A model generated the notes under the pieces. It did no database searches. It was not told where the DNA came from and worked only from the letters and a program-made list of their open reading frames with translations. A DNA stretch of 55,842 nucleotides from NCBI GenBank assembly GCA_900552235.1, contig URYZ01000002.1:1-55842 (forward strand), in the 5' to 3' direction. Positions 89 to 53,239 of the stretch are shown here, piece by piece. How positions within the stretch are numbered: position 1 is the first letter of the stretch; each line of letters opens with the position of its first letter. A program made the position numbers and the translations under genes. The DNA is from an uncultured Mycoplasmatota bacterium. GTDB lineage: Bacteria > Bacillota_I > Bacilli_A > RF39 > UBA660.

Positions 89-117
89 ATTATACAATAT
101 ACCCCTCCCCAAGTCAA
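89..117 (-). promoter_or_regulatory. sigma-A-type promoter TTGACT - 17 nt - TATAAT with GGGGAGGGG in the spacer
   Basis: Read on the minus strand, the -35 TTGACT is at 117-112, the spacer is TGGGGAGGGGTATATTG, and the -10 TATAAT is at 94-89. The cassette and the first ~16 nt of its 5' UTR (AAGCTTATAAAGTTAA) are homologous to the promoter at 12572-12599. Confidence 0.5.
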
Positions 118-198: not shown

Positions 199-226
199 TT
201 GGATATATTCGGGGGGGAAATATAAA
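199..226 (+). promoter_or_regulatory. promoter-like element TTGGAT - 16 nt - TATAAA with a G7 run (211-217) in the spacer
   Basis: The hexamers and spacing were read directly from the sequence. The -35 is weak (TTGGAT), and no clear gene follows before the hairpin at 226-274. Confidence 0.25.
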
Positions 227-11389: not shown

Positions 11390-11481
11390 AAATACCTCCC
11401 CAAATATATCTAAATTTATTATATCATGAAATAATAATTATTTTTAAAAAAATATAAAAAAAACTTATGATAAATCATAAG

Positions 11482-12528
11482 TTACAATCCAAGTGTATAT
11501 GGATTAGCACTTGTTCCATCTCCTCCGGTTATTTTAATATTTGATTTTAAATATAGGACTGGCCTCACATGAAAATTATGTGTAAAAAACATACCACCTG
11601 AATTATCTATATAACCATTTTGATTTGTATAATAGAAATTAACTCCAAGACCTCTATCAGGATTTTGATCTAATAACCACTCAGCATTTTTAATATTATA
11701 TAACCAATTCGTATCGTTACATGCTCTTATATCATAATTTGATGAATTTTCGTCATATAATTTTTTCGTTTCACAATTACTACTTGCATAGCCATAATCA
11801 CTTGCATACATTACCCCTATTTTTCCTATAAAACTATTTGGATTACTTCCATAGTAAAATTCATTACTTTTTGTATTTTTTGTTTTTCTTTCATAACTAT
11901 ACATATCTACTGGTGTTTGAATTAAACCATTTTGATATTTATATCCATCATATCCACCTAAATAATATTTTGTATTTCCTATCATATTTTGTGTTTCACT
12001 TGTTAACGAACTCAAATACGTTCCATTTAAATTATTATTCATATTCGTTTCTGGCCAAGCTATTTCAACAGAGTTATTACTATCAGCAACATATGTTCCT
12101 ATACTCTCATTTCTTACTAACTTTATTCTATTTTCTATCTTACCTTTTCCATCATCGGTTGGGAATACTCCTATTATTCTCCATACTTCATTATTAAATG
12201 TTACATAGTTTTTTGGATTTGCTCCCCTATATCTATATTCTGTTACACTTTCATTAGTTCCTATTTGAAGTGTTGTATCAGCTTCATGTGTTATGGTGTA
12301 AAGTCCACTGTTATTTTGATTATTAGTTAATTTTATAAGGGTATCTGCCCCACTTTTTTTTAATTCTCCTACAGTAGCTTCAATTACATTATTACTTGTT
12401 TTTGTAAAACTAAATAATGCATAACTTGAGTATCCTATACATACTAATATAATTAAAACTATTGTAAATAAAAAATAACTATTTATTATTTTAATATCTG
12501 TATTTAAAAAACTTATTATTTTTTTCAC
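11482..12528 (-). CDS. secreted paralog-family protein, copy 1 (function unknown)
   Basis: It starts at a GTG and has an N-terminal TM/signal segment ending in SSYALFSF. The core is NSGLYTITHEADTTLQIG...EYRYRGANPKNYVTFNNEVWRIIGVFPTDDGKGKIENRIKL...MYASDYGYAS...NWLY...EWLL...VRPVLYLK...GGDGTSANPY. The same core occurs at 29087-30535 and 37615-39063. Confidence 0.8.
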   Translation of the reverse strand: MKKIISFLNTDIKIINSYFLFTIVLIILVCIGYSSYALFSFTKTSNNVIEATVGELKKSGADTLIKLTNNQNNSGLYTITHEADTTLQIGTNESVTEYRYRGANPKNYVTFNNEVWRIIGVFPTDDGKGKIENRIKLVRNESIGTYVADSNNSVEIAWPETNMNNNLNGTYLSSLTSETQNMIGNTKYYLGGYDGYKYQNGLIQTPVDMYSYERKTKNTKSNEFYYGSNPNSFIGKIGVMYASDYGYASSNCETKKLYDENSSNYDIRACNDTNWLYNIKNAEWLLDQNPDRGLGVNFYYTNQNGYIDNSGGMFFTHNFHVRPVLYLKSNIKITGGDGTSANPYTLGL

Positions 12529-12571
12529 TATATCACAACCTTATTTTATTAACTATTAACTTTATAAGGTT

Positions 12572-12599
12572 ATTATATAATACATCCCCCCCATGTCAA
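12572..12599 (-). promoter_or_regulatory. sigma-A promoter TTGACA - 16 nt - TATAAT with a G7 run (12586-12592) in the spacer
   Basis: On the minus strand the -35 is at 12599-12594, the spacer is TGGGGGGGATGTATTA, and the -10 is at 12577-12572. It is followed by AACCTTATAAAGTTAA, which is shared with the promoter at 89-117. It drives the paralog gene 11482-12528. Confidence 0.5.
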
Positions 12600-12667
12600 T
12601 AATTTTCTTTACACTTTTCAACAATTCAAATTTATAGTAAAATAAATATTGAAAGGAATTGATTAAT

Positions 12668-29086: not shown

Positions 29087-30535
29087 TCAGTTAAAACAAG
29101 TACAAGGAGCTATAGGTTCAGATGTATAATAGTTATATGATTTTGTTACTATATTATTTTTTTTGTCCTTTAAAAATATATTAAAATTATAACTTGTATT
29201 ACGTTTTAAATCAATTCCAAGACAACACCAATAATTATGTATTACATTAGATGATATTGTAACATCATTCCAAGTACAATTATCTTGATTATTATCATTA
29301 TTTAAAACACAATATTTATCAAGTAAATATGATCCTGGGGTAACTGAAATATTAAAATTATTTTCAAAAATTTCATATCCATCAATTGTAGGTAATACAA
29401 CTTTACCATCAAGTGCAAAAACATATGGGTTGGTACTTGTTCCATCACCATCCATTATTTGAACATTAGGTTTTAAATATAAAGTTGGCCTTACTGCAAA
29501 TTTATCAGTTGTGTGCGCATCGTGAATAAGACCTACATCATATTTTTGAAACAAAACAAACTACGAACTCCCCCATTGATTTAATAGCCATTCTTGATCC
29601 TGAAAATCATATAACCAGTTTGTTGAATTGCATACACTTATTATATCTGTATCATTGTTTACACCATATAGTTTTCTATTTTCACAATTTAAACCTGCAT
29701 AGCCATAATCACTAACATACATTAAAGCTAAATCTCCTGTCCAACTATTTGGATTTGTTGAATAATAATATGTACCACTTCCACTTATTTTTCGTTCATA
29801 TGAATACATATTTGAAACTGTTATTCCAGCACTAGTATACCCACCTAAATAATATTTTGATGAGCCAATCATTTGTTGCGCTACACTTGATATATTATTA
29901 TAATATGTACCATTTAAATACGTATTTAATGTTGATGGACGAGCCCAATTATTTGAACCCTCAAGTATAGCGGCAGTCATAGTAATTTCATAATTATTAC
30001 TTTTATTTAAATATTCTACTTTTAACTTGTTTTTAGCATTTAATAACAAATTATCATATATATTATAGTTATAAGCTGATGATATATCATCCCATGCATA
30101 TGTTCCTATACTTTCATTTCTTATTAATTTTATTCTATTTTCTATTTTTCCTGTTCCATCATCAGTTGGGAATACTCCTATTATTCTCCATGTTTCATTA
30201 TTAAATGTTACATAATTTTTTGGACTTGCTCCACGATATCTATATTCTGTTATATCTTTATCATTTCCTATTTGAAGTGTTGTATCTTTTGAATGTGTTA
30301 TGGTATATAGACCACTATTATCTTTATTACCAGTTTGTTTAATAATTTTATCAACACCATAGCTTTCTTCATCACCTTTTAATAAATTATTTAATTCTTC
30401 TCTTAAATCTAATATATATTGTTTATCATTTGTATATTCACTTCTTAATATTCCAAGTACTAAAAACATACAAAGTGATAAAAGAAGAATTATTGAATAA
30501 ATAACTGTTGTTATTGCCATTCCTTTATTATTCAT
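29087..30535 (-). pseudogene. secreted paralog-family gene, copy 2, interrupted by one in-frame TAG (29563-29561); has a Cys-rich C-terminal extension
   Basis: The 327-aa and 155-aa track ORFs are in the same frame (...EWLLNQWGSS*FVLFQKYDVG...VRPTLYLK...DGDGTSTNPY). The aligned position in copy 3 is Tyr (NSSYEG). The N-terminus MNNKG-MAITTVIYSIILL is prepilin-like. Confidence 0.7.
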
Positions 30536-30596
30536 ATTACACACACCTTTATCTTATAAATTTATTATACAATAAAAATATAAAAAAAAATAGATA

Positions 30597-30818
30597 TTAT
30601 TGTAATATATCTATAAATTTTGACAACATATTAATACTATTAGCCATTTTATTTATTTTATCTTCTGAAGTTAATTTATATTCTTTTTTCATTTCTTCTT
30701 CAAATTGTTTAAAATAATTTTTATTTCTATTTAAAAACTTATACCAATATGACTTTTCTCTTAAATATTTTATATCATTTGGATTAGACCTTAGTCTATA
30801 TTGAATTTCTACATTCAT
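30597..30818 (-). CDS. YlbE-like small protein
   Basis: This 73-aa protein has an IKYLREKSYWYKFLNRN motif resembling the YlbE family. It is coupled by a TAATG overlap to the upstream ylbD-like gene, the same adjacency as in B. subtilis. Confidence 0.5.
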   Translation of the reverse strand: MNVEIQYRLRSNPNDIKYLREKSYWYKFLNRNKNYFKQFEEEMKKEYKLTSEDKINKMANSINMLSKFIDILQ

Positions 30819-37344: not shown

Positions 37345-37561
37345 ATCCTCCTTCATAAAATAAAAAAGGTAATACCAAAGGACGAATTATTTCGTGGTAC
37401 CACCTTATTTCATAAGTATAACTTATCTTAAACCTTTAACGCAGGTAACGATAAAGCTAAAGAGTGAATTCATAAGATATTACTTAGAAGTTTACACCAA
37501 CCACTTCTTCTCTTAAAGTAATACTTCTTATTACTATTTTCTTATTATCGCTTTTTCTTAT
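37345..37561 (-). promoter_or_regulatory. T-box riboswitch leader, specifier TTC (Phe)
   Basis: On the minus strand I read AAGAGAAG, the distal-loop GGTGTAAAC, the specifier context GAA-TTC-A (TTC at 37468-37466), and the T-box sequence AAGGTGGTACCACG. A terminator and T-run lie before the pheS SD. Confidence 0.85.
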
Positions 37562-37614: not shown

Positions 37615-39063
37615 TTAAATTCCAAGAATATATGGATTACTACTTGTTCCATCTCCACCAGTTATTTTAACATCTGTTTTTAAATATAATGTTGGTCTAA
37701 CATCAAGATTTAAAATAGCTGTATAATTAGAATTAGTACCAGTATAATTATTAATCATCCCTTCATCACGCAACATATAAACATGCCCTTCATAACTCGA
37801 ATTTTGTGGTAATAGCCATTCTTTCCATGAGGCAAGAGGATTAGTATTTTTATTATATAACCAATTTGTATCATTACATACTCTTATATCATCGTTTGAT
37901 GCATTTTTATTATATAATTTTTTTGTTTCACAATTAGCGCTTGCGTATCCATAGTCACTTGCATACATAAGAGCCACTTTTCCAACCCAACTATTTGGAT
38001 TTGTTCCACGATAATATGTACTCCCACTTATTTTCCTTTCATATTGATATATTTGCTCAACAGTTACTAAATATTCACTTACATAGCCTCCTAAATAATA
38101 CTTTGATTCAGCCACATAATTTGAATTTGATAAATTATTATAATATGTATTATTTAAATATACATTTAAAGTTGCATTTACCCAATTATTTCTACCGTTA
38201 TTATCCCATGTTTTCTTTCCTATACTTTGATCTTTTATTAATTTTATTCTATTTTCTATCTTACCTGTTCCATCATCTGTTGGAAAAACACCAATTATTC
38301 TCCATGTTTCTCCATTAAATGTTACATAGTTTTTGGGATTTGCTCCCCTATATCTATATTCTATTATACTTTCTGTTGCTCCTATTTGAAGTGTACTATC
38401 AGCAGGATGTGTTATGGTGTAAAGTCCACTATTATCTTTATTATCTGTTAATGCTATTAAAGTATCAGTAGCAGGAGGAATAAATGGTGTTTCAACACTT
38501 ACTTTAAACTTAACATTACCTCCTATAATAGTTTGATGTGTTCCTCCTGCTTCAAATATATTTGTTTTAGGACTTATCCATGATGTTAAGCTATATTCAT
38601 GTGTTTCTGTTGCATTTGTAAATGTATTAGTACATAATACATAACTATTTTCATATTTATATTTATCTAAATCTGTTATAAAAGATGGTCCATAAACTAT
38701 ATTTTTTGTTTTATTATTTAAATATACTTTACCTTTATCTATATTATTTAAATACTCAATATCCATAGTTAAATATACTATATAATTAATATCTTTATTA
38801 GTTGTATTATTTACACTTACTTTAAAATTAAATACATTACCACTTGCAATACCTTCTTCATCTGTTTTTAAAGTATCTCCCGTTACATTAATATTATTAG
38901 TTTCTTCATAAGTTAAAGTAAGTGATCCTATATTAATTTGATGCTGTTTATTTCCTCTTAAAACAAGATTATAAGTAGCATAACTTACTCCTACCATTAA
39001 ACATAATATTAATGTAATATATAAAGTTAATTTTATATTTTTTATTTTCTTATTCTCTTCCAT
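37615..39063 (-). CDS. secreted paralog-family protein, copy 3, with an extra ~170-aa N-terminal module
   Basis: The signal/TM segment ends in GVSYATYNLVL and is followed by INIGSLTLTY (camelysin/SipW-substrate-like). An Asn/Thr-rich module comes next, then the shared core (DNSGLYTITHPADSTLQIG...RYRGANPKNYVTFNGETWRIIGVFPTDDGTGKIENRIKL...VRPTLYLK...GGDGTSSNPY). Confidence 0.8.
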   Translation of the reverse strand: MEENKKIKNIKLTLYITLILCLMVGVSYATYNLVLRGNKQHQINIGSLTLTYEETNNINVTGDTLKTDEEGIASGNVFNFKVSVNNTTNKDINYIVYLTMDIEYLNNIDKGKVYLNNKTKNIVYGPSFITDLDKYKYENSYVLCTNTFTNATETHEYSLTSWISPKTNIFEAGGTHQTIIGGNVKFKVSVETPFIPPATDTLIALTDNKDNSGLYTITHPADSTLQIGATESIIEYRYRGANPKNYVTFNGETWRIIGVFPTDDGTGKIENRIKLIKDQSIGKKTWDNNGRNNWVNATLNVYLNNTYYNNLSNSNYVAESKYYLGGYVSEYLVTVEQIYQYERKISGSTYYRGTNPNSWVGKVALMYASDYGYASANCETKKLYNKNASNDDIRVCNDTNWLYNKNTNPLASWKEWLLPQNSSYEGHVYMLRDEGMINNYTGTNSNYTAILNLDVRPTLYLKTDVKITGGDGTSSNPYILGI

Positions 39064-42289: not shown

Positions 42290-42413
42290 AATACTTCTTC
42301 CTTTCTAATTATTACTTTCTAAGTATAGCACATATTCCCTATTTATTCAATTTATTTACATAAATTAGATTATTTTTAACATAATAAAATTAGGTTAAAA
42401 GGATGTGATTATT

Positions 42414-43877
42414 ATGGAAAAAATATATAAAGTTTTAGAAGAAAATATTAATAAAATAAAATATGAATATAAGTATTCTAAAGACTTAACATTTAAATAT
42501 TTAAAAATAAACAATTTAAATATATCCCTTGTTTATTTAAATACATTAGCTAGTGATGATGCGATTAATAATTATATTTTAAAAAGTTTAAATGACTTAA
42601 TTAAAACCAAAAAAGAACTTAAATATAAAAATATTTTAACTTATTTTAAGAGTTTTATACCAGGAAGTAATATAAAAGAAGAAGATACTTTTGATAAACT
42701 ATATGATTTAATTGAAAATGGCTTTACTTGTATATTATTTAATGATGAAAAAAAATATATTGCAGTAGAAACTAAAAAAGACTTATCAAGAGCCATAGAT
42801 ACTCCAAAAACAGAACAAACAATATCAGGCCCAAAAGATTCTTTTACCGAAAATTATAATATTAACATTGGGTTAATAAGAAAAAGGATTAAGTCAAAAG
42901 ATTTAATTTTGGAAGAATTTACTATTGGTAATTTAACTAATACCAAAGTTGGTATTTTATATATGGATAATATTATTGAAGATGAGCTTTTAAATGAAGT
43001 TAGAAAAAAATTAAGTGAAATTGAAATAGATGGTATAATTGACGCTAGTTATATAACAGAAATACTAAGTAGTAAAAATATTGTTTTACCTTTAATAACA
43101 GAAACTGAAAGACCTGATTTAGCTACAATGTCACTTCTTGAAGGAAAAGTTTTAATTGCTGTAGATAATTCGCCTTATATGGTAATAATTCCTACCTTCT
43201 TTAGTGATTTATTTAGTGCACCAGAAGACTACTACCAAAGAAGTAAAAATGTTACATTTACAAGAATTATAAGAATAACTGCTTTTTTACTTGCTATTTT
43301 ATTACCAGCCTTTTTTATAGCTATAACAACTTATAATCACGAAACAATACCACTTACATTAATAATTAATTTTGCTGCCCAAAGACAAGGTGTTCCTTTT
43401 CCTTCAATAATAGAAGCACTTTTAATGATTTTAATTTTCGAAATATTAAGAGAAAGTGATATTAGAATGCCAAGTTTAGGAGGAAGTGCTATTTCAATTC
43501 TTGGAGCAATTGTTCTTGGAGATGCCGCTGTTTCAGCAGGAATTGTATCTCCTATTATGGTAATAGTTGTTGCAACAAGTGCTATGTGTAGCTTAATGTT
43601 TTCCCATATTTCAATGGTTAATGCAATTAGATTTTGGCGTATTATTTTTATGTTATTTTCAACTATTTTAGGTTTACCAGGTTTATATTTTTGTATGTTT
43701 TTATTTGTTATATATTTATCTAGTTTAAAATCATTTGGAAAACCTTACCTTTATCCATTTGCTCCATTTAACTTTGAAGGAATAAAAGATACTTTACTTA
43801 AACAAAATATAAAAGAAATAAAAAAAAGAAATCCTCTTCTTACTGATAAAAATATTACAAGGAGTAAAAATCTATGA
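42414..43877 (+). CDS. spore germinant receptor subunit A (GerA family)
   Basis: The GerA-type soluble domain is followed by a TM bundle (FFSDLFSAPEDYYQR, EALLMILIFEILRE.D.RMP). It is the first gene of an A-C-B operon. Confidence 0.9.
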   Translation: MEKIYKVLEENINKIKYEYKYSKDLTFKYLKINNLNISLVYLNTLASDDAINNYILKSLNDLIKTKKELKYKNILTYFKSFIPGSNIKEEDTFDKLYDLIENGFTCILFNDEKKYIAVETKKDLSRAIDTPKTEQTISGPKDSFTENYNINIGLIRKRIKSKDLILEEFTIGNLTNTKVGILYMDNIIEDELLNEVRKKLSEIEIDGIIDASYITEILSSKNIVLPLITETERPDLATMSLLEGKVLIAVDNSPYMVIIPTFFSDLFSAPEDYYQRSKNVTFTRIIRITAFLLAILLPAFFIAITTYNHETIPLTLIINFAAQRQGVPFPSIIEALLMILIFEILRESDIRMPSLGGSAISILGAIVLGDAAVSAGIVSPIMVIVVATSAMCSLMFSHISMVNAIRFWRIIFMLFSTILGLPGLYFCMFLFVIYLSSLKSFGKPYLYPFAPFNFEGIKDTLLKQNIKEIKKRNPLLTDKNITRSKNL

Positions 43878-45010
43878 AAAAAATAAAAATTATTTTAATT
43901 TTAGTTTTAACTATTTTAATAAGTGGTTGTTCTTATAAAGAACTTAATGATTTAGCTATTGCAAGTGCTTTAGGTATTGATTATGAAAATAATGAATATA
44001 TTATAAGTGCTCAAATAATGGAACTTAAAAAACAAGAAAAAGAAGATACTTCTAGTGCTTTAATTTATTTAGGAAAAGGGAAAACTATTTCTGAAGCATT
44101 AAGAAATATTAGTTTAAAATATCCAAATTACTTATATTTAGGACATCTTGAATTAATAATAATAGGAAAAGGAGAAATTAATCATGGAATTAATAACTCA
44201 CTTGATTATTTTATTAGAACATCTGATGCTAGAAATGATGCTTTAATTTTAGTAAGTACAAAAAATAAAGCTTATGAAATAATAAATCCAAATGAAGAAA
44301 CTAAAGAAGAATTTCCTGTTAAAGATATTGTAACAACAATTAGAAATAGTAAAGAAAGAAATGGACTTGTTATTGAAAAAAACTATGAAGAATTAATAAA
44401 TGATTACTTAGAAAGAGGTATTAGTCAAATTTTAACTACTATTGAAAATGAAAAAGATGAAAACGATAATTATAAAGACACCATCCTTTCTAATATTGCT
44501 GTTTTTGAAAAAGGAAAATATGTAAAAGATTTAGATAAAGAAAGCGCTATTTCTTATAACTTAATAAACAATAATTTTGATAATGTATCCATTGATATTA
44601 TATATAACAATAAAGATGTAAGCGTTAGTTTAATTAAGCCTAAATGTAGTTTAGATTTAAAACTAGATAATGATAAAGTAATAGTAAACATTAATATTAA
44701 TGTTGAAGAAGGAGTTTTAAATATAAATGATAAAAAAACTTTATTAGATAAAAATTTTTTAAAAGATATAGAGAATATAACAAAGAAAAAAGTTGAAAGT
44801 TATATAAATAATCTTATAAATTTTAATATAGAAAATAACACCGATGTTCTAGGACTTAAAAATATAATATATAAAAAATATCATAAATCTTATAAAAAGT
44901 TTAAAGATAAAAATATATATGAAATAGCAAAAATAAATATAAATACTAATGTTCACTTATATAAGTATGGAAATATATATAAAAGTTTCTCAGGAGGAAG
45001 CCATGAATAA
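43874..45010 (+). CDS. spore germinant receptor subunit C (Ger(x)C lipoprotein)
   Basis: It has the lipobox LTILISGCS. ELNDLAIASALGIDYE is the typical GerAC N-terminal motif. It overlaps the A subunit in an ATGA. Confidence 0.85.
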   Translation: MKKIKIILILVLTILISGCSYKELNDLAIASALGIDYENNEYIISAQIMELKKQEKEDTSSALIYLGKGKTISEALRNISLKYPNYLYLGHLELIIIGKGEINHGINNSLDYFIRTSDARNDALILVSTKNKAYEIINPNEETKEEFPVKDIVTTIRNSKERNGLVIEKNYEELINDYLERGISQILTTIENEKDENDNYKDTILSNIAVFEKGKYVKDLDKESAISYNLINNNFDNVSIDIIYNNKDVSVSLIKPKCSLDLKLDNDKVIVNININVEEGVLNINDKKTLLDKNFLKDIENITKKKVESYINNLINFNIENNTDVLGLKNIIYKKYHKSYKKFKDKNIYEIAKININTNVHLYKYGNIYKSFSGGSHE

Positions 45011-46106
45011 TAAAGAAAAAATTGGTACAACAGAATTAACCTTTTTAGTAATGTCTATTTGCTTAGCTCTTTTCCCCGCTTTTGGAACAGCAACCGTTAT
45101 TAATTATGGGAAAAACACCGCTATTATATCCGTTATAATAGGAAGTATAATTGGTCTTATTCCTTTATTTATGATTTTATATATAACAAAATTCACTACC
45201 GATAAAAATATTTTAGAAGTGAATGATGAAAAATTTAAAATGTTTGGAAAATTTATAAATATTTTATATTTTATTGGCATCGTCTTTATTGGTTTTTGTA
45301 TTTCTTGGCAAGTAATAAATTTTACAATAAGTCATCTTTTAACAAGAACTTCTTATTATGTTGTTGGAATAATCCTTTTTTCAGTTATGTCTTATGCTAT
45401 TGTAAAAGGAAACGAAGTTATTTTAAGAAGTAATTTAATTCTTACTATGCTTGGAAGTGTTCTGTTTATATTTATTTTTATCTTTTTAATACCAAAGATA
45501 AAAATAGATAATTTTTTACCAATTATTAACGTTAAAAAAGCCTCTGTTATTAGTACAGCATTAATCGTACCTACTTTTATGGTGTATCCTTTAATATCTA
45601 TTCTTTGTATAAAAAAAGATGAAGTTAATGATAAAAGCAAATACAATAAATCCATTATAAAAGGCTATACTTTGGTAGTTATTATAATTATTGTATTTAT
45701 AATTTTTATAATAGGAATATATGGATCTAATATGGCAAGTTTATTTACCTTTCCTGAATACTATATCTTTAAAAAAATAAAAGCGTTTGATTTTATCTCA
45801 AGAATAGAAAATATTGCCGCCGCCTTAATTTATATAAGTTTCTTTGGAAATATGGCATCACTTATGAATTTTGCTAAAACTTGTGTAAAAAAAGCTTTAA
45901 ATCTTAAAAATGTTAGAGTAATAAATTTAGCAACTTATATTTTATCTATACTTGTTCCTATTTTAAGTATAATATTTTTTAAAAAATATCAGCATTTACA
46001 AATATTAAAATATTATCCAATAATATCAAGTATTTTACTAATTGCTTTAATAATTAATTTTATTTTACTATTTATAGCAAAGAAAAAAAATAATCTTTAT
46101 CCTTAG
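45003..46106 (+). CDS. spore germinant receptor subunit B (APC-type permease-like)
   Basis: The ATG at 45003 follows a GGAGGAAG SD. MNNKEKIGTTELTFLV is followed by about 10 TM segments. Confidence 0.85.
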   Translation: MNNKEKIGTTELTFLVMSICLALFPAFGTATVINYGKNTAIISVIIGSIIGLIPLFMILYITKFTTDKNILEVNDEKFKMFGKFINILYFIGIVFIGFCISWQVINFTISHLLTRTSYYVVGIILFSVMSYAIVKGNEVILRSNLILTMLGSVLFIFIFIFLIPKIKIDNFLPIINVKKASVISTALIVPTFMVYPLISILCIKKDEVNDKSKYNKSIIKGYTLVVIIIIVFIIFIIGIYGSNMASLFTFPEYYIFKKIKAFDFISRIENIAAALIYISFFGNMASLMNFAKTCVKKALNLKNVRVINLATYILSILVPILSIIFFKKYQHLQILKYYPIISSILLIALIINFILLFIAKKKNNLYP

Positions 46107-50676: not shown

Positions 50677-51228
50677 TTTGCAAGTAACAACTAATCTTAA
50701 ATCATCACTTACACAAGTAAGAAGAATAATAACTCTTTCATCACCTCCTTCAAATATAGAATAATCATCTTTTTTAATTATTTTTTTAGAAACAACTTTA
50801 TACTTATAAGTATAAAATTTACTTCCAATAATTACCTCATCACCTATTTTAAGTTTATTTAAATTTTTAAAAACATAAATATTATTATGACCTGCTAGTA
50901 AAGTTATACCTGTTTTACTATCAAGATCTTTTAAATCTTTATATAACCCTACAACATTTTTATTTAAAATATTATCACTTGTGCCTAACATAATAAATTT
51001 ATTTATATTATATTTATCTATTTTTATATATCCTATATAATTATTATTTTTCATTAATAAATCTTTCTCTTTTATTATTGGTGGTCTTTTATAATTATTT
51101 TCTATTTTTGTTGTTATTATATAATTTTTATTATAATTATATTTAAAATAATTATATATTGCTATACTACTTACTATACTTAACATAATTATTAATACTA
51201 ATTTAATTATCTTTATACTTTTTTTCAT
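50674..51228 (-). CDS. sortase-family transpeptidase
   Basis: It has an N-terminal TM anchor, His in LLAGHNN, Cys in ILLTCV, and Arg in DDLRLVV. It overlaps the 3' end of the adhesin gene. Confidence 0.8.
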   Translation of the reverse strand: MKKSIKIIKLVLIIMLSIVSSIAIYNYFKYNYNKNYIITTKIENNYKRPPIIKEKDLLMKNNNYIGYIKIDKYNINKFIMLGTSDNILNKNVVGLYKDLKDLDSKTGITLLAGHNNIYVFKNLNKLKIGDEVIIGSKFYTYKYKVVSKKIIKKDDYSIFEGGDERVIILLTCVSDDLRLVVTCK

Positions 51229-53239
51229 ATAAACCAATACTTATATTTATTAATATTATAATTATTCCACTTAAATAATTTATATTTATAGATTTACTTG
51301 TATTAGGCATTTCTATTTTATTATTTATAACTTCAAAAGTTAAAAGTTCATTATTTAATATCTCAAACTCTATTATTTCATCATTTTTTATATAACCATA
51401 AGGAGCTTTTAACTCTTTTAAATAATAACTTCCTGCTTTTATATTCTCTATTTTTATAATTCCTTCGTTATTAGTTGTTTCTTTATAAATTAAATTATCA
51501 TTGTTATCATATATTCCAAATGTAGCATCTTTTAAAAGATTTAAATTATTAGATTTTTTTATTATTTCAAGATTACCTAATATTCTTTCATTTTCTAAAT
51601 TAAAATCATATATTTTACCATTTTCTTTTATTTCAAAATAATGTTTTGTATTATCTAATTTATAATACTTAGGACTTTCTTTTTCTACAAAATAATACTT
51701 TCCAAGTTCCATATTTTCTATTTTTATAATACCTTTATTATTAGTTGTTTCTTCATATAATAGATTATCATTATTATCATAAATCATAATAACAGCATTA
51801 CTTAAACTTGTTTTAGTATCTTTATCTATTTTATTAATTATTAAAGTTGGCTTTTTAATATTTTTTAAATTATAAATATAATCTTTACTTTCTTCGATAA
51901 TAACTTCAAAATCATTAGTAAATATATAATTTTCTTTTCCTTTAGTTTGTTTTATTTTATATTTGCCATATTCTAAAATTTTACTTGTCTTACCATTTTT
52001 ATTAGTTTTTAATGAAGATATTAAATTATCATTATTATCATAAATATCAAAACAAGCACCTTCTTCACTTACATAATCATAACCACTTCCACCATATAAC
52101 TTATTTATAATAAGATTACCTTTTATTTTATTATTCTCTATAGTAATAATAGGTTTATTATTTTCTTTTGATATTTCAAAATAATACTTTTTTTCATTTA
52201 ATTCATATCCTCTTGTAGGAGTTTTTTCTTTTAAATAATAACTTCCATTTTCTAATGTAATTATTTCTTCTTCTTTAGTTATTTCTATATCTTTTATTAA
52301 ATTATCATTATTATCATATAAAGATATAATACTCCCTATTAATTTATCATTAAATGTTTTTTCATCCTTATCAATTTTTTTTAAAATTAACTCTCCATCA
52401 TAAATATTCACATTAACATAAGATGTTTTATAATTATTAACATTTCCTCTTGTTATAACATCTTGAACATTATTACTTTTAAGAAGATAAAAATCATTAC
52501 TTACTTCTTGTTTTTCCAAGATAAGTTTTTCTTTCGTTTTCTCAAGCGCTGTTATTTCTAATTTATTATCTTTTTTAATAACTTTAATATTATTAGTTGG
52601 TTTAATATTAAACTTATATAAAACATTATTTGTATCTTCTAAAGTTATTTTATCTCCCACGAAAAGATTTAATTCTTCACTATCAAAACTTGGTAATATA
52701 GAATGATTATAAACAAGAGTTAAAAGTTCACTAACTTCGCTAAAATGTAAACTTGCTTTTATTCCTCCATACCTACCTGTTTTAAACGTCCAAGTAACAT
52801 CAGGTCTTATTGTTCGCCATATTAATACTTGTGTTATTCCATACCATTTTTTTGATGTATGATTATATTTTTCATCTTTATAACCATATCCATAATAAGC
52901 AAGTAATTTTATTCTTGTTAATGTGTTTTCATCAATTTTAAGTTTGCTTATAATGTCTTTTTCACTTACTATTTTATTATAACTATTGGCTTTACTTTCA
53001 TTTAAAAAAGGCATATGTGTTGCAGGATCTATACAATAATAAATATAGTTATTAGCAGTAGATTTTATAATCCATCCATTATAATCAAGACTATTATAAG
53101 TTACATCTTTGGCAAATACATCTACCCCACTTAAAGTATATCCATCCATATAAATTTTTCCATCATTTGCAAGTACATTTATATTTATACTAAACAAACT
53201 TATTAAAAATATTATTATTTTAAAAATTAATTTTTTCAT
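51203..53239 (-). CDS. surface adhesin: signal peptide, thioester (TQxA) domain, 4 SpaA/Cna-B-like repeats, MPNTS sorting signal
   Basis: IYYCIDP (Cys69, 53035-53033) and GITQVLIW (Gln136) match the Cys-Gln thioester-domain signatures. There are four ~90-aa repeats, each with (I/L)YDNNDNL ... GxYYxxE ... YxxxxxxxxFEI. The C-terminus is MPNTS, a hydrophobic helix, and a KKYK tail. Confidence 0.8.
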   Translation of the reverse strand: MKKLIFKIIIFLISLFSININVLANDGKIYMDGYTLSGVDVFAKDVTYNSLDYNGWIIKSTANNYIYYCIDPATHMPFLNESKANSYNKIVSEKDIISKLKIDENTLTRIKLLAYYGYGYKDEKYNHTSKKWYGITQVLIWRTIRPDVTWTFKTGRYGGIKASLHFSEVSELLTLVYNHSILPSFDSEELNLFVGDKITLEDTNNVLYKFNIKPTNNIKVIKKDNKLEITALEKTKEKLILEKQEVSNDFYLLKSNNVQDVITRGNVNNYKTSYVNVNIYDGELILKKIDKDEKTFNDKLIGSIISLYDNNDNLIKDIEITKEEEIITLENGSYYLKEKTPTRGYELNEKKYYFEISKENNKPIITIENNKIKGNLIINKLYGGSGYDYVSEEGACFDIYDNNDNLISSLKTNKNGKTSKILEYGKYKIKQTKGKENYIFTNDFEVIIEESKDYIYNLKNIKKPTLIINKIDKDTKTSLSNAVIMIYDNNDNLLYEETTNNKGIIKIENMELGKYYFVEKESPKYYKLDNTKHYFEIKENGKIYDFNLENERILGNLEIIKKSNNLNLLKDATFGIYDNNDNLIYKETTNNEGIIKIENIKAGSYYLKELKAPYGYIKNDEIIEFEILNNELLTFEVINNKIEMPNTSKSININYLSGIIIILINISIGLYEKKYKDN

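Follow-up and report, generated by a model that had tools for sequence, protein, structure and literature searches.

The window, by which we mean the whole analysed stretch of 55,842 nucleotides, has a G+C content of 23.0% and carries on its minus strand a gene for a 348-aa protein, with rarA/mgsA in divergent orientation on one side and polA downstream on the other. Ahead of its start codon, the minus strand from 12599 to 12572 reads TTGACA-T-G7-ATGTATTA-TATAAT, a promoter whose spacer holds a run of seven Gs. The features of this locus are as follows.

11454-11483, minus strand: intrinsic terminator, 9-bp stem followed by U8, overlapping the stop codon (-8.4 kcal/mol, z = -2.1)
11482-12528, minus strand: target gene, 348 aa, GTG start (ORF list, profile scan and protein database search)
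12542-12539, minus strand: Shine-Dalgarno sequence AAGG; 43 nt separate the -10 element from the GTG start
12529-12565, minus strand: predicted 5'UTR, with a transcription start estimated near 12565 from the spacing to the -10 element
12577-12572, minus strand: -10 element TATAAT (sequence and promoter scan), overlapped by a TATATA two bases upstream
12593-12578, minus strand: 16-nt spacer, composed of T, G7 and ATGTATTA (direct reading)
12586-12592, minus strand: G7 homopolymer, C7 on the plus strand (sequence, and comparison with related copies reading T-G8-T[GA]TATTA)
12599-12594, minus strand: -35 element TTGACA (direct reading and promoter scan)
12529-12630, minus strand: dispersed cassette of promoter and 5'UTR (blastn of locus L001 against the window ends at 12630; alignment of 10 copies)

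Since the terminator overlaps the stop codon, 11482-12528 is monocistronic. The protein begins with a K-rich N-terminus and a single hydrophobic segment, followed by a DUF6273-like domain. The DUF6273 match covers residues 144-329 with 20.9 bits (E = 3.6e-4) and does not reach the Pfam gathering threshold of 23.5 bits; several relatives carry a precomputed PF19789 hit, and these two observations make it probable that the protein is a distant DUF6273 member. Published modelling describes DUF6273 as a C-type-lectin-like domain that occurs in DGR target proteins (PMC10743442). NCBIfam gave neither a function for the protein nor a match to a signal-peptide model, and its AF2 model, with a pLDDT of 60, found no Foldseek match in the PDB at E < 1. 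The view of the first-pass annotation that the gene belongs to a multi-copy family proved correct: the window itself contains two paralogs, one at 37615-39063 with 55% identity and one at 29561-30544 with 46%, and the protein database holds 3783 relatives, the closest named one being 'Mycoplasma sp. CAG:611_25_7' at 92% identity. GTDB representatives contain 61 family loci, and at least 15 copies occur in one Hadza MAG.

The window also encodes a GerA-type germinant receptor (42405-43877, plus strand), MurE/F-type ligases and a SpaA/thioester-domain adhesin (51203-53239, minus strand). These genes indicate a walled and probably spore-forming host that is no true mycoplasma. A spore-forming host had been assumed before; that part is still defensible through the GerA receptor, and the organism itself is a 'Mycoplasma sp. 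CAG:611'-like bacterium of RF39 type. Two adjacent ORFs follow the GerA gene in the region 42405-46106 (plus strand), and a T-box leader at 37375-37557 (minus strand) precedes pheS/pheT.

The promoter at 12599-12572 scored 12/12 as a sigma-A promoter in a scan of the window, in agreement with the earlier reading of TTGACA and TATAAT around a 16-nt spacer with G7 at 12586-12592. It is the only exact TTGACA-N16-18-TATAAT in the 55.8 kb; shuffled windows contain 0.18 such matches on average, with at least one match in 18 of 100 shuffles, and looser promoter-like matches number 23 against 19.3 expected. The run count likewise upheld the reading made by eye: the only G/C runs longer than five are the C7 at 12586-12592 and a G7 at 211-217, and below them stand eight runs of C5 and none of six. 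A first-order Markov model expects 0.018 + 0.163 G/C runs of at least 7 in the window. A chance origin of promoter and tract is excluded mainly because TTGACA-polyG-TATAAT recurs in 48 homologous copies, as described below.

Several other origins of the tract were considered and rejected. A poly-G sequencing artefact does not account for it, because dozens of independent assemblies, including the CAG:611 scaffolds of 2013, have the tract. It is not part of an upstream ORF (ATG-GGG-GGG-ATG..., translated MGGMYYIITL*), since the commoner class of copies has CCT rather than ATG before the Gs, and it is not a MerR-type operator with a 19-bp spacer, as the spacer shows no dyad symmetry. The last G of the tract is still 58 nt short of the GTG start, and an in-frame TAA stands at 12543-12541, so that the tract lies outside the coding sequence, where an intragenic contingency locus would have it. 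Rfam recognises no known RNA element in the leader, its only match in the window being the T-box, and RNA folding from the predicted start leaves the leader unstructured. Directly after the -10 element, 12564-12571 (minus strand, AACCTTAT) is fully complementary to 12537-12544 (minus strand, ATAAGGTT), which covers the Shine-Dalgarno sequence; the pairing is worth -7.2 kcal/mol and would form only in an RNA that starts at or upstream of the -10 element.

The promoter, 5'UTR and signal-peptide start form a cassette of about 100 bp, of which 48 copies (45 distinct) were obtained from 'Mycoplasma sp. CAG:611'-like (RF39-type) gut genomes and from metagenomes. The copies were gathered through protein searches and a metagenome scan for TATTGACA-N1-5-G6-N5-14-TATAAT, so that the hexamers of the metagenome loci are imposed by the scan pattern; TTGACA is intact in eight other copies found through their proteins (L001, L003, L004, L005, two in L006, L048, and the full copy of L086). 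The order of blocks is a conserved TTGTTAAAA box, an A-rich stretch, TTGACA, the G tract, TATAAT, and a leader running from TTATAAAGTTAATAG to AAGGTTGTG. Homology between copies begins about 30 nt upstream of the -35 element, reaches the start codon and often continues into the signal-anchor codons. At least six different gene 5' ends follow the cassette, all with hydrophobic N-termini (VKKIISFLNTD, VKRIISFLKT, MKENMKRKIAMLL, MKKQNIIMGISF, MKNFIKFLKTD and MI[EN]KLKQNKL). Every copy heads a gene for a DUF6273-like protein predicted to be secreted; these proteins have 330-890 aa, a K-rich N-terminus with one hydrophobic segment, and a common DUF6273-like core. The copies sit singly among housekeeping genes, such as rarA/polA, gyrB/gatC and PBP/dnaG. 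The earlier claim of a conserved near-consensus promoter driving a diversified family is therefore supported, with the tract in the spacer, a monocistronic gene and signal-anchor N-termini.

The copies fall mainly into two classes of spacer.

Class I: TTGACA-ACCT-G8-T[GA][TC]TTTA-TATAAT, 19-nt spacer, 29 copies, the commoner class
Class II: TTGACA-T-G8-T[GA]TATTA-TATAAT, 16-nt spacer, 13 copies, the class of the window

G8 is the modal tract, found in 34 of the 48 copies (71%); G7 occurs in six, G9 in four, G6 in two and G10 in one, and one tract is interrupted. Some of the departures from G8 are substitutions that preserve the spacer, namely G7A in the window, G9 in place of G8T (G9-ATATTA in L107, L143 and L183) and G10 in place of G8TG (L118). 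The window tract derives from the canonical class II G8 by a change of the final G to A (12585), and its spacing stays at 16. A second cassette copy in the window, which the first-pass annotation had overlooked, has an interrupted tract.

89-117, minus strand: second cassette copy, TTGACT (117-112)-T-GGGGAGGGG-TATATTG-TATAAT (94-89), 17-nt spacer

Its tract, GGGGAGGGG, occupies 102-110, and it drives a family gene of the MKKQNIIMGISF... type that starts at 46 and is cut by the left edge of the window. Orthologs of this copy have an uninterrupted G8 (L122, L164, L134) or G7 (L141).

A survey of G runs over 637 kb of low-GC related loci plus the window returned 65 distinct G/C runs of at least 7. 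Forty-nine lie in the family promoter position, 15 follow closely on the start codon in the family genes of a sister lineage, and the only one outside family positions is the orphan run at 211-217 of the window. In the sister lineage, represented by Hadza 'uncultured Bacilli' MAGs (CAKOMW, CAKOJO, CAKOLK and CAKOQD; loci L012, L016-L020, L023, L027, L030, L037, L039, L043, L047 and L066), an ATG is followed by five or six codons (..AAC AAA TAT TCG TCT), G10 or G11, CAAAATACT and then the family ORF. A leader ATG precedes 15 coding tracts; 14 of them are out of frame as assembled, and the sole in-frame copy, L013, has an interrupted tract (GGCGGGGGGG). Two loci that are at least 95% identical, L018 and L066, have G10 and G11. 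From their sequences, these genes look like a large translational contingency family. That one family has long G tracts at two 5' sites which differ in mechanism suggests selection on mutability and not on a DNA-binding motif. A distant family relative of 982 aa (L133, GC 0.30) is preceded by TTGACA-TA-G16-TATAAT.

Variation between strains was assessed for six family proteins, in each case on contigs of separate samples whose encoded proteins are identical. The tract was contained in 26 contigs, and three of these differ from their G8 siblings by exactly one G (L198 and L200 with G7; L210 with G9 and hence a 17-nt spacer) in upstream regions of 140-150 nt that are otherwise identical, all three being short-read metagenome assemblies in which consensus errors are possible. 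All three of these single-G polymorphisms between near-identical strains are in promoters of the 16-nt class; the 19-nt class was invariant, with G8 in 13 of 13 contigs. Over 42.9 kb of pairwise alignments at no less than 99% identity, the tract differed in 3/15 comparisons versus 0/191 for A/T runs of 6-8 (Fisher test, about 3e-4). In a wider control with a minimum of 95% identity, differences occurred in 3/36 comparisons of G7-10 runs, 6/80 of A/T8 runs and 2/10 of A/T9 runs, so that in this control G tracts show no excess of change over A/T8-9 runs. Two Gs separate L092 (G6, spacer 17) from L111 (G8, spacer 19), whose surroundings match on either side of the tract; L106 and L186 have G7. 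Spacings from 15 to 19 nt are found among natural alleles. The earlier arithmetic, by which one more G would give a 17-nt spacer, is right, and such alleles exist in nature with G9 (L006:1436 and L210).

Contig ends adjoin the tract in L002, L195 and L207. As a sign of heterogeneity within a sample they are uninformative, because the cassette repeat exceeds the assembly k-mers, and the break in L207 coincides with the divergence of paralogs two to three bases past the tract. Positions 1-25 of L151 are the Illumina adapter CACGACGCTCTTCCGATCT at a contig start, a contamination in a public metagenome assembly.

Comparison of the tract across related genomes, as had been proposed, gave a divided answer: one- and two-G differences with unchanged flanks were found elsewhere in the family, but strains at the window locus are set apart by substitutions, by an indel of 3 nt (ACC) and by a switch from one promoter type to the other, with no simple G slippage between them. 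L001 encodes an identical protein and is 99.6% identical to the window over 4.1 kb, and its promoter belongs to class I (ACCT-G7-A-TGTTTTA, spacer 19), against the 16-nt class of the window. Its upstream neighbourhood, uvrB-DUF1287, also differs from that of the window; L003 and L004 have the same neighbourhood as L001, L005 has rpe-hipA, and these three all have G8 with a 19-nt spacer. The polA-linked gene thus has three different upstream neighbourhoods (window, L001 and L005), and the breakpoints coincide with the cassette's upstream border, a position that suggests a role of the cassette as a recombination substrate. The content of other slots also varies by strain. Between gyrB and gatC (L211-L217) stands a 601-aa or a 331-aa family member; between PBP and dnaG (L202-L210) it is one of 381 aa and class I or one of 338 aa and class II. 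The rarA side of L086, 98% identical to the window, shows tandem cassettes beside rarA (L086:2432-2470 and L086:2200-2270). The rarA-proximal one is crippled (TTGAC-GGGGG-ATG..., 4 nt shorter than that of the window), and the distal one, about 160 nt further on, is a complete class II cassette with G8 and a 16-nt spacer that drives a 619-aa family member.

The best explanation of these sequences, which we hold at a probability of roughly 0.55, is slipped-strand control of transcription through promoter spacing. The G tract would be the length-setting element of the spacer between -35 and -10 in a sigma-A promoter, and slipped-strand mispairing at the tract would add or remove single Gs and shift the spacing of the hexamers, through 15, 16 and 17 nt in the class of the window and 17, 18 and 19 nt in the other. 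Sigma-70/sigma-A promoters depend in general on a spacing of 17 +/- 1 nt, so transcription of the cassette genes should depend on spacer length as well, and each gene could be tuned or switched independently. In class II, G8 (16 nt) would be active, G9 (17 nt) optimal and G7 (15 nt) weak; in class I, G8 (19 nt) would be poor and G7 or G6 would bring the spacing to 18 or 17 nt. The copy in the window, changed from G8 to G7-A at a spacing of 16, would be a slightly stabilised allele, since a shorter run is more stable; G8 there would give the optimal 17 and G6 would give 15. Reversible switching at high frequency within a clone would be expected to follow. Recombination of cassettes would form a slower layer, in which a 16- or a 19-nt promoter is set before the same gene, or different gene bodies are placed in one chromosomal slot.

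As an expression switch, the poly-G tract is credible and unproven; its credibility comes from the one-G length differences between near-identical strains. The earlier proposal of a phase-variation candidate therefore stands in part: the strain-level excess of one-G changes speaks for it, and the modal G8, the substitutions that keep the spacing and the reported presence of mutS/mutL speak against it. That the commoner class is stable at a spacer of 19 nt, an odd length for a working promoter, also counts against a switch.

The first alternative, which we consider unlikely and still worth serious attention, is that the G run is a fixed cis-element, such as a regulator-binding site or a spacer structure, whose length is held by selection, and that occasional departures from this length are polymorphisms with no effect or a slightly harmful one. 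This alternative stays alive because G8 is modal in 71% of copies, because the class I contigs are invariant at strain level (13/13), and because RF39 genomes are reported to retain the mismatch repair genes mutS/mutL (PMC7301438). The two sharp spacer classes of 16 and 19 nt, the substitutions that keep the spacing (in the window, L107, L143, L183 and L118) and the lack of excess over A/T8-9 runs in the broad control point the same way. However, a binding site is unlikely to tolerate versions with G6 to G10, G4AG4 and G16, the spacer has none of the dyad symmetry expected of a MerR-type 19-bp-spacer operator, the single-G excess at strain level is significant, and the sister lineage places its long G tracts in the 5' coding sequence instead, which argues for mutability.

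A second alternative treats the tract as functionless baggage of a dispersed repeat, with length variation produced by short-read or assembly error at poly-G. The source of the variants is indeed contigs assembled from Illumina metagenomes, in part at low coverage; the tract adjoins the end of several contigs (L002, L195, L207), and the L151 locus begins with adapter sequence. We nevertheless find this reading improbable: an unselected G8 should decay rapidly at 23% G+C, yet 48 copies keep it, in species with no more than 60-70% identity between their family proteins; consensus errors should affect both classes, but 3/3 strain-level variants are in the 16-nt class; and it is paralog divergence, not the tract, that accounts for the point at which the L207 contig breaks off.

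Equally hard to credit is a start of family transcription from another promoter, with TTGACA/TATAAT inoperative or one of two and the G tract in the 5' leader: a box resembling an extended -10 element, TGTTAAAAT, is conserved some 25 nt ahead of the -35 element and could serve, 'TTGTTAAAAT' is conserved like the hexamers in class I, where the 19-nt spacing is poor, and a leader starting at or before the -10 element would let AACCUUAU and AUAAGGUU pair in class II and cover the Shine-Dalgarno sequence (-7.2 kcal/mol), but the box is degraded in the window and other class II copies (TGTTGAAAA, TGTTAAAAA) where the 12/12 promoter is intact, the hairpin is missing in class I, and -10-like strings are common in DNA of 23% G+C (23 versus 19.3 expected).

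Slipped-strand control of promoter spacing has well-known counterparts. In Neisseria meningitidis, the surface-protein genes porA (poly-G) and opc/fetA (poly-C) have tracts in the spacers of their sigma-70-type promoters, and slippage by one base alters spacing and transcript level. The window family resembles porA/opc in having a G/C homopolymer between -35 and -10; the hexamers score 12/12, the position of the tract is kept in 48 copies, and the transcription start is a predicted one. Length differences of whole units between close strains with unchanged flanks are also present (L198, L200 and L210; L092 and L111). The differences are that the tracts are shorter here (modal G8 versus 9-11 or more), that the host belongs to a low-GC Gram-positive-type lineage of gut commensals, that one promoter is reused by dozens of paralogs, and that switching and its effect on expression are proposals here. 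Tracts of G7-G8 are at the low end of known phase-variable lengths.

In Mycoplasma hyorhinis, the vlp genes, a family for variable surface proteins, have a poly-A tract in the promoter spacer, and the paralogs are almost alike in promoter, 5'UTR and signal peptide. The cassette architecture, with a spacer homopolymer for each copy and a block of promoter, 5'UTR and signal peptide common to the paralogs, is alike in the present family; its tract, however, consists of G and not of A. The lipobox cysteine of vlp, vsp and vpma proteins is not a consistent feature of the N-termini of the cassette genes (some read ...ILVCIGYSSYALFS, and many read ...ILISIGYSSYA or ...VMGVSYAAYKFS without Cys), so these are not lipoproteins. 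The genes are scattered among housekeeping genes instead of forming a cluster, which in vsp and vpma has a site-specific recombinase gene beside it; no recombinase was found among the window ORFs scanned, and the host is an RF39-type bacterium with peptidoglycan and germination genes, not a true Mycoplasma. Campylobacter jejuni has intragenic poly-G contingency loci. Intragenic poly-G tracts are also known from pilus genes of Bifidobacterium breve, and SSR switches are thus known in gut commensals (PMC9187656). The tracts of the sister lineage, which lie in the 5' coding region and shift the frame, resemble these loci, whereas the window tract is in a promoter, 58 nt upstream of the start codon. 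A literature search found nothing on phase variation in RF39/CAG-611.

A wider reading, tentative and with somewhat less than an even chance of being right, is a genome-wide contingency system in CAG:611/RF39-type Bacilli and their Hadza-MAG relatives, in which poly-G switches on dozens of genes for C-type-lectin-like surface proteins operate through slippage and cassette recombination. One clade would place its switch in a portable promoter cassette with classes of 16 nt (on-ish) and 19 nt (off-ish), and the sister clade would place it in the first codons, with G10/G11 nearly all out of frame. Cassette recombination would swap promoter class and gene body at fixed slots, and the whole would amount to antigenic variation of the vlp/porA kind in a never-cultured commensal of a lineage prevalent in the human gut.

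If the tracts do switch expression, these small-genome gut bacteria would vary many putative ligand-binding surface proteins from cell to cell. The host lineage is abundant in non-industrialised populations and has never been cultured, and variation of this kind would matter for how they evade IgA, resist phages and persist as strains; consensus MAGs would conceal functional heterogeneity at exactly these tracts. The signature TTGACA-N1-5-G6+-N5-8-TATAAT together with the conserved UTR may be used to find and count the loci in metagenomes, and to check tract heterogeneity in existing read sets. The design itself appears to be classical, and its interest would be moderate, coming mainly from the family-wide scale and the uncultured host.

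Some minor observations concern related elements of the window and of other contigs. The paralog at 29087-30544 (minus strand) is probably a decaying pseudogene. An in-frame TAG (29561-29563) stands directly after a run of G5, and the same frame goes on through 29087-29554. Upstream of this paralog (about 30545-30610), the -10 element and leader of the cassette are kept, and TTGACA and the G tract are lost; a T9, the longest A/T run in the window, replaces them.

The orphan G7 at 211-217 (plus strand; context 197-240) reads TTGGAT-ATATTC-G7-AAA-TATAAA with a 16-nt spacer. It had been noted together with the tract at 12586-12592. It does lie between hexamers, though weak ones, but it is no copy of the same element, and no homolog of the region was found among more than 200 fetched loci. 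Downstream of it come a 14-bp hairpin (AAATAAATCAATGA/TCATTGATTTATTT) and an IS30-like HTH_38 ORF (369-746) that is truncated; a better promoter, belonging to this ORF itself, is at about 320-348.

In several strains (L189-L197), a 305-aa tyrosine recombinase (Phage_integrase) lies about 180 nt downstream of the P0101 family gene; it may be a housekeeping Xer protein. Much longer G tracts in promoter spacers were also seen in three unrelated but mutually homologous gut contigs of GC about 0.58, namely G11 with a spacer of 16 in L140, G14 with a spacer of 19 in L165 and G14 with a spacer of 18 in L130.
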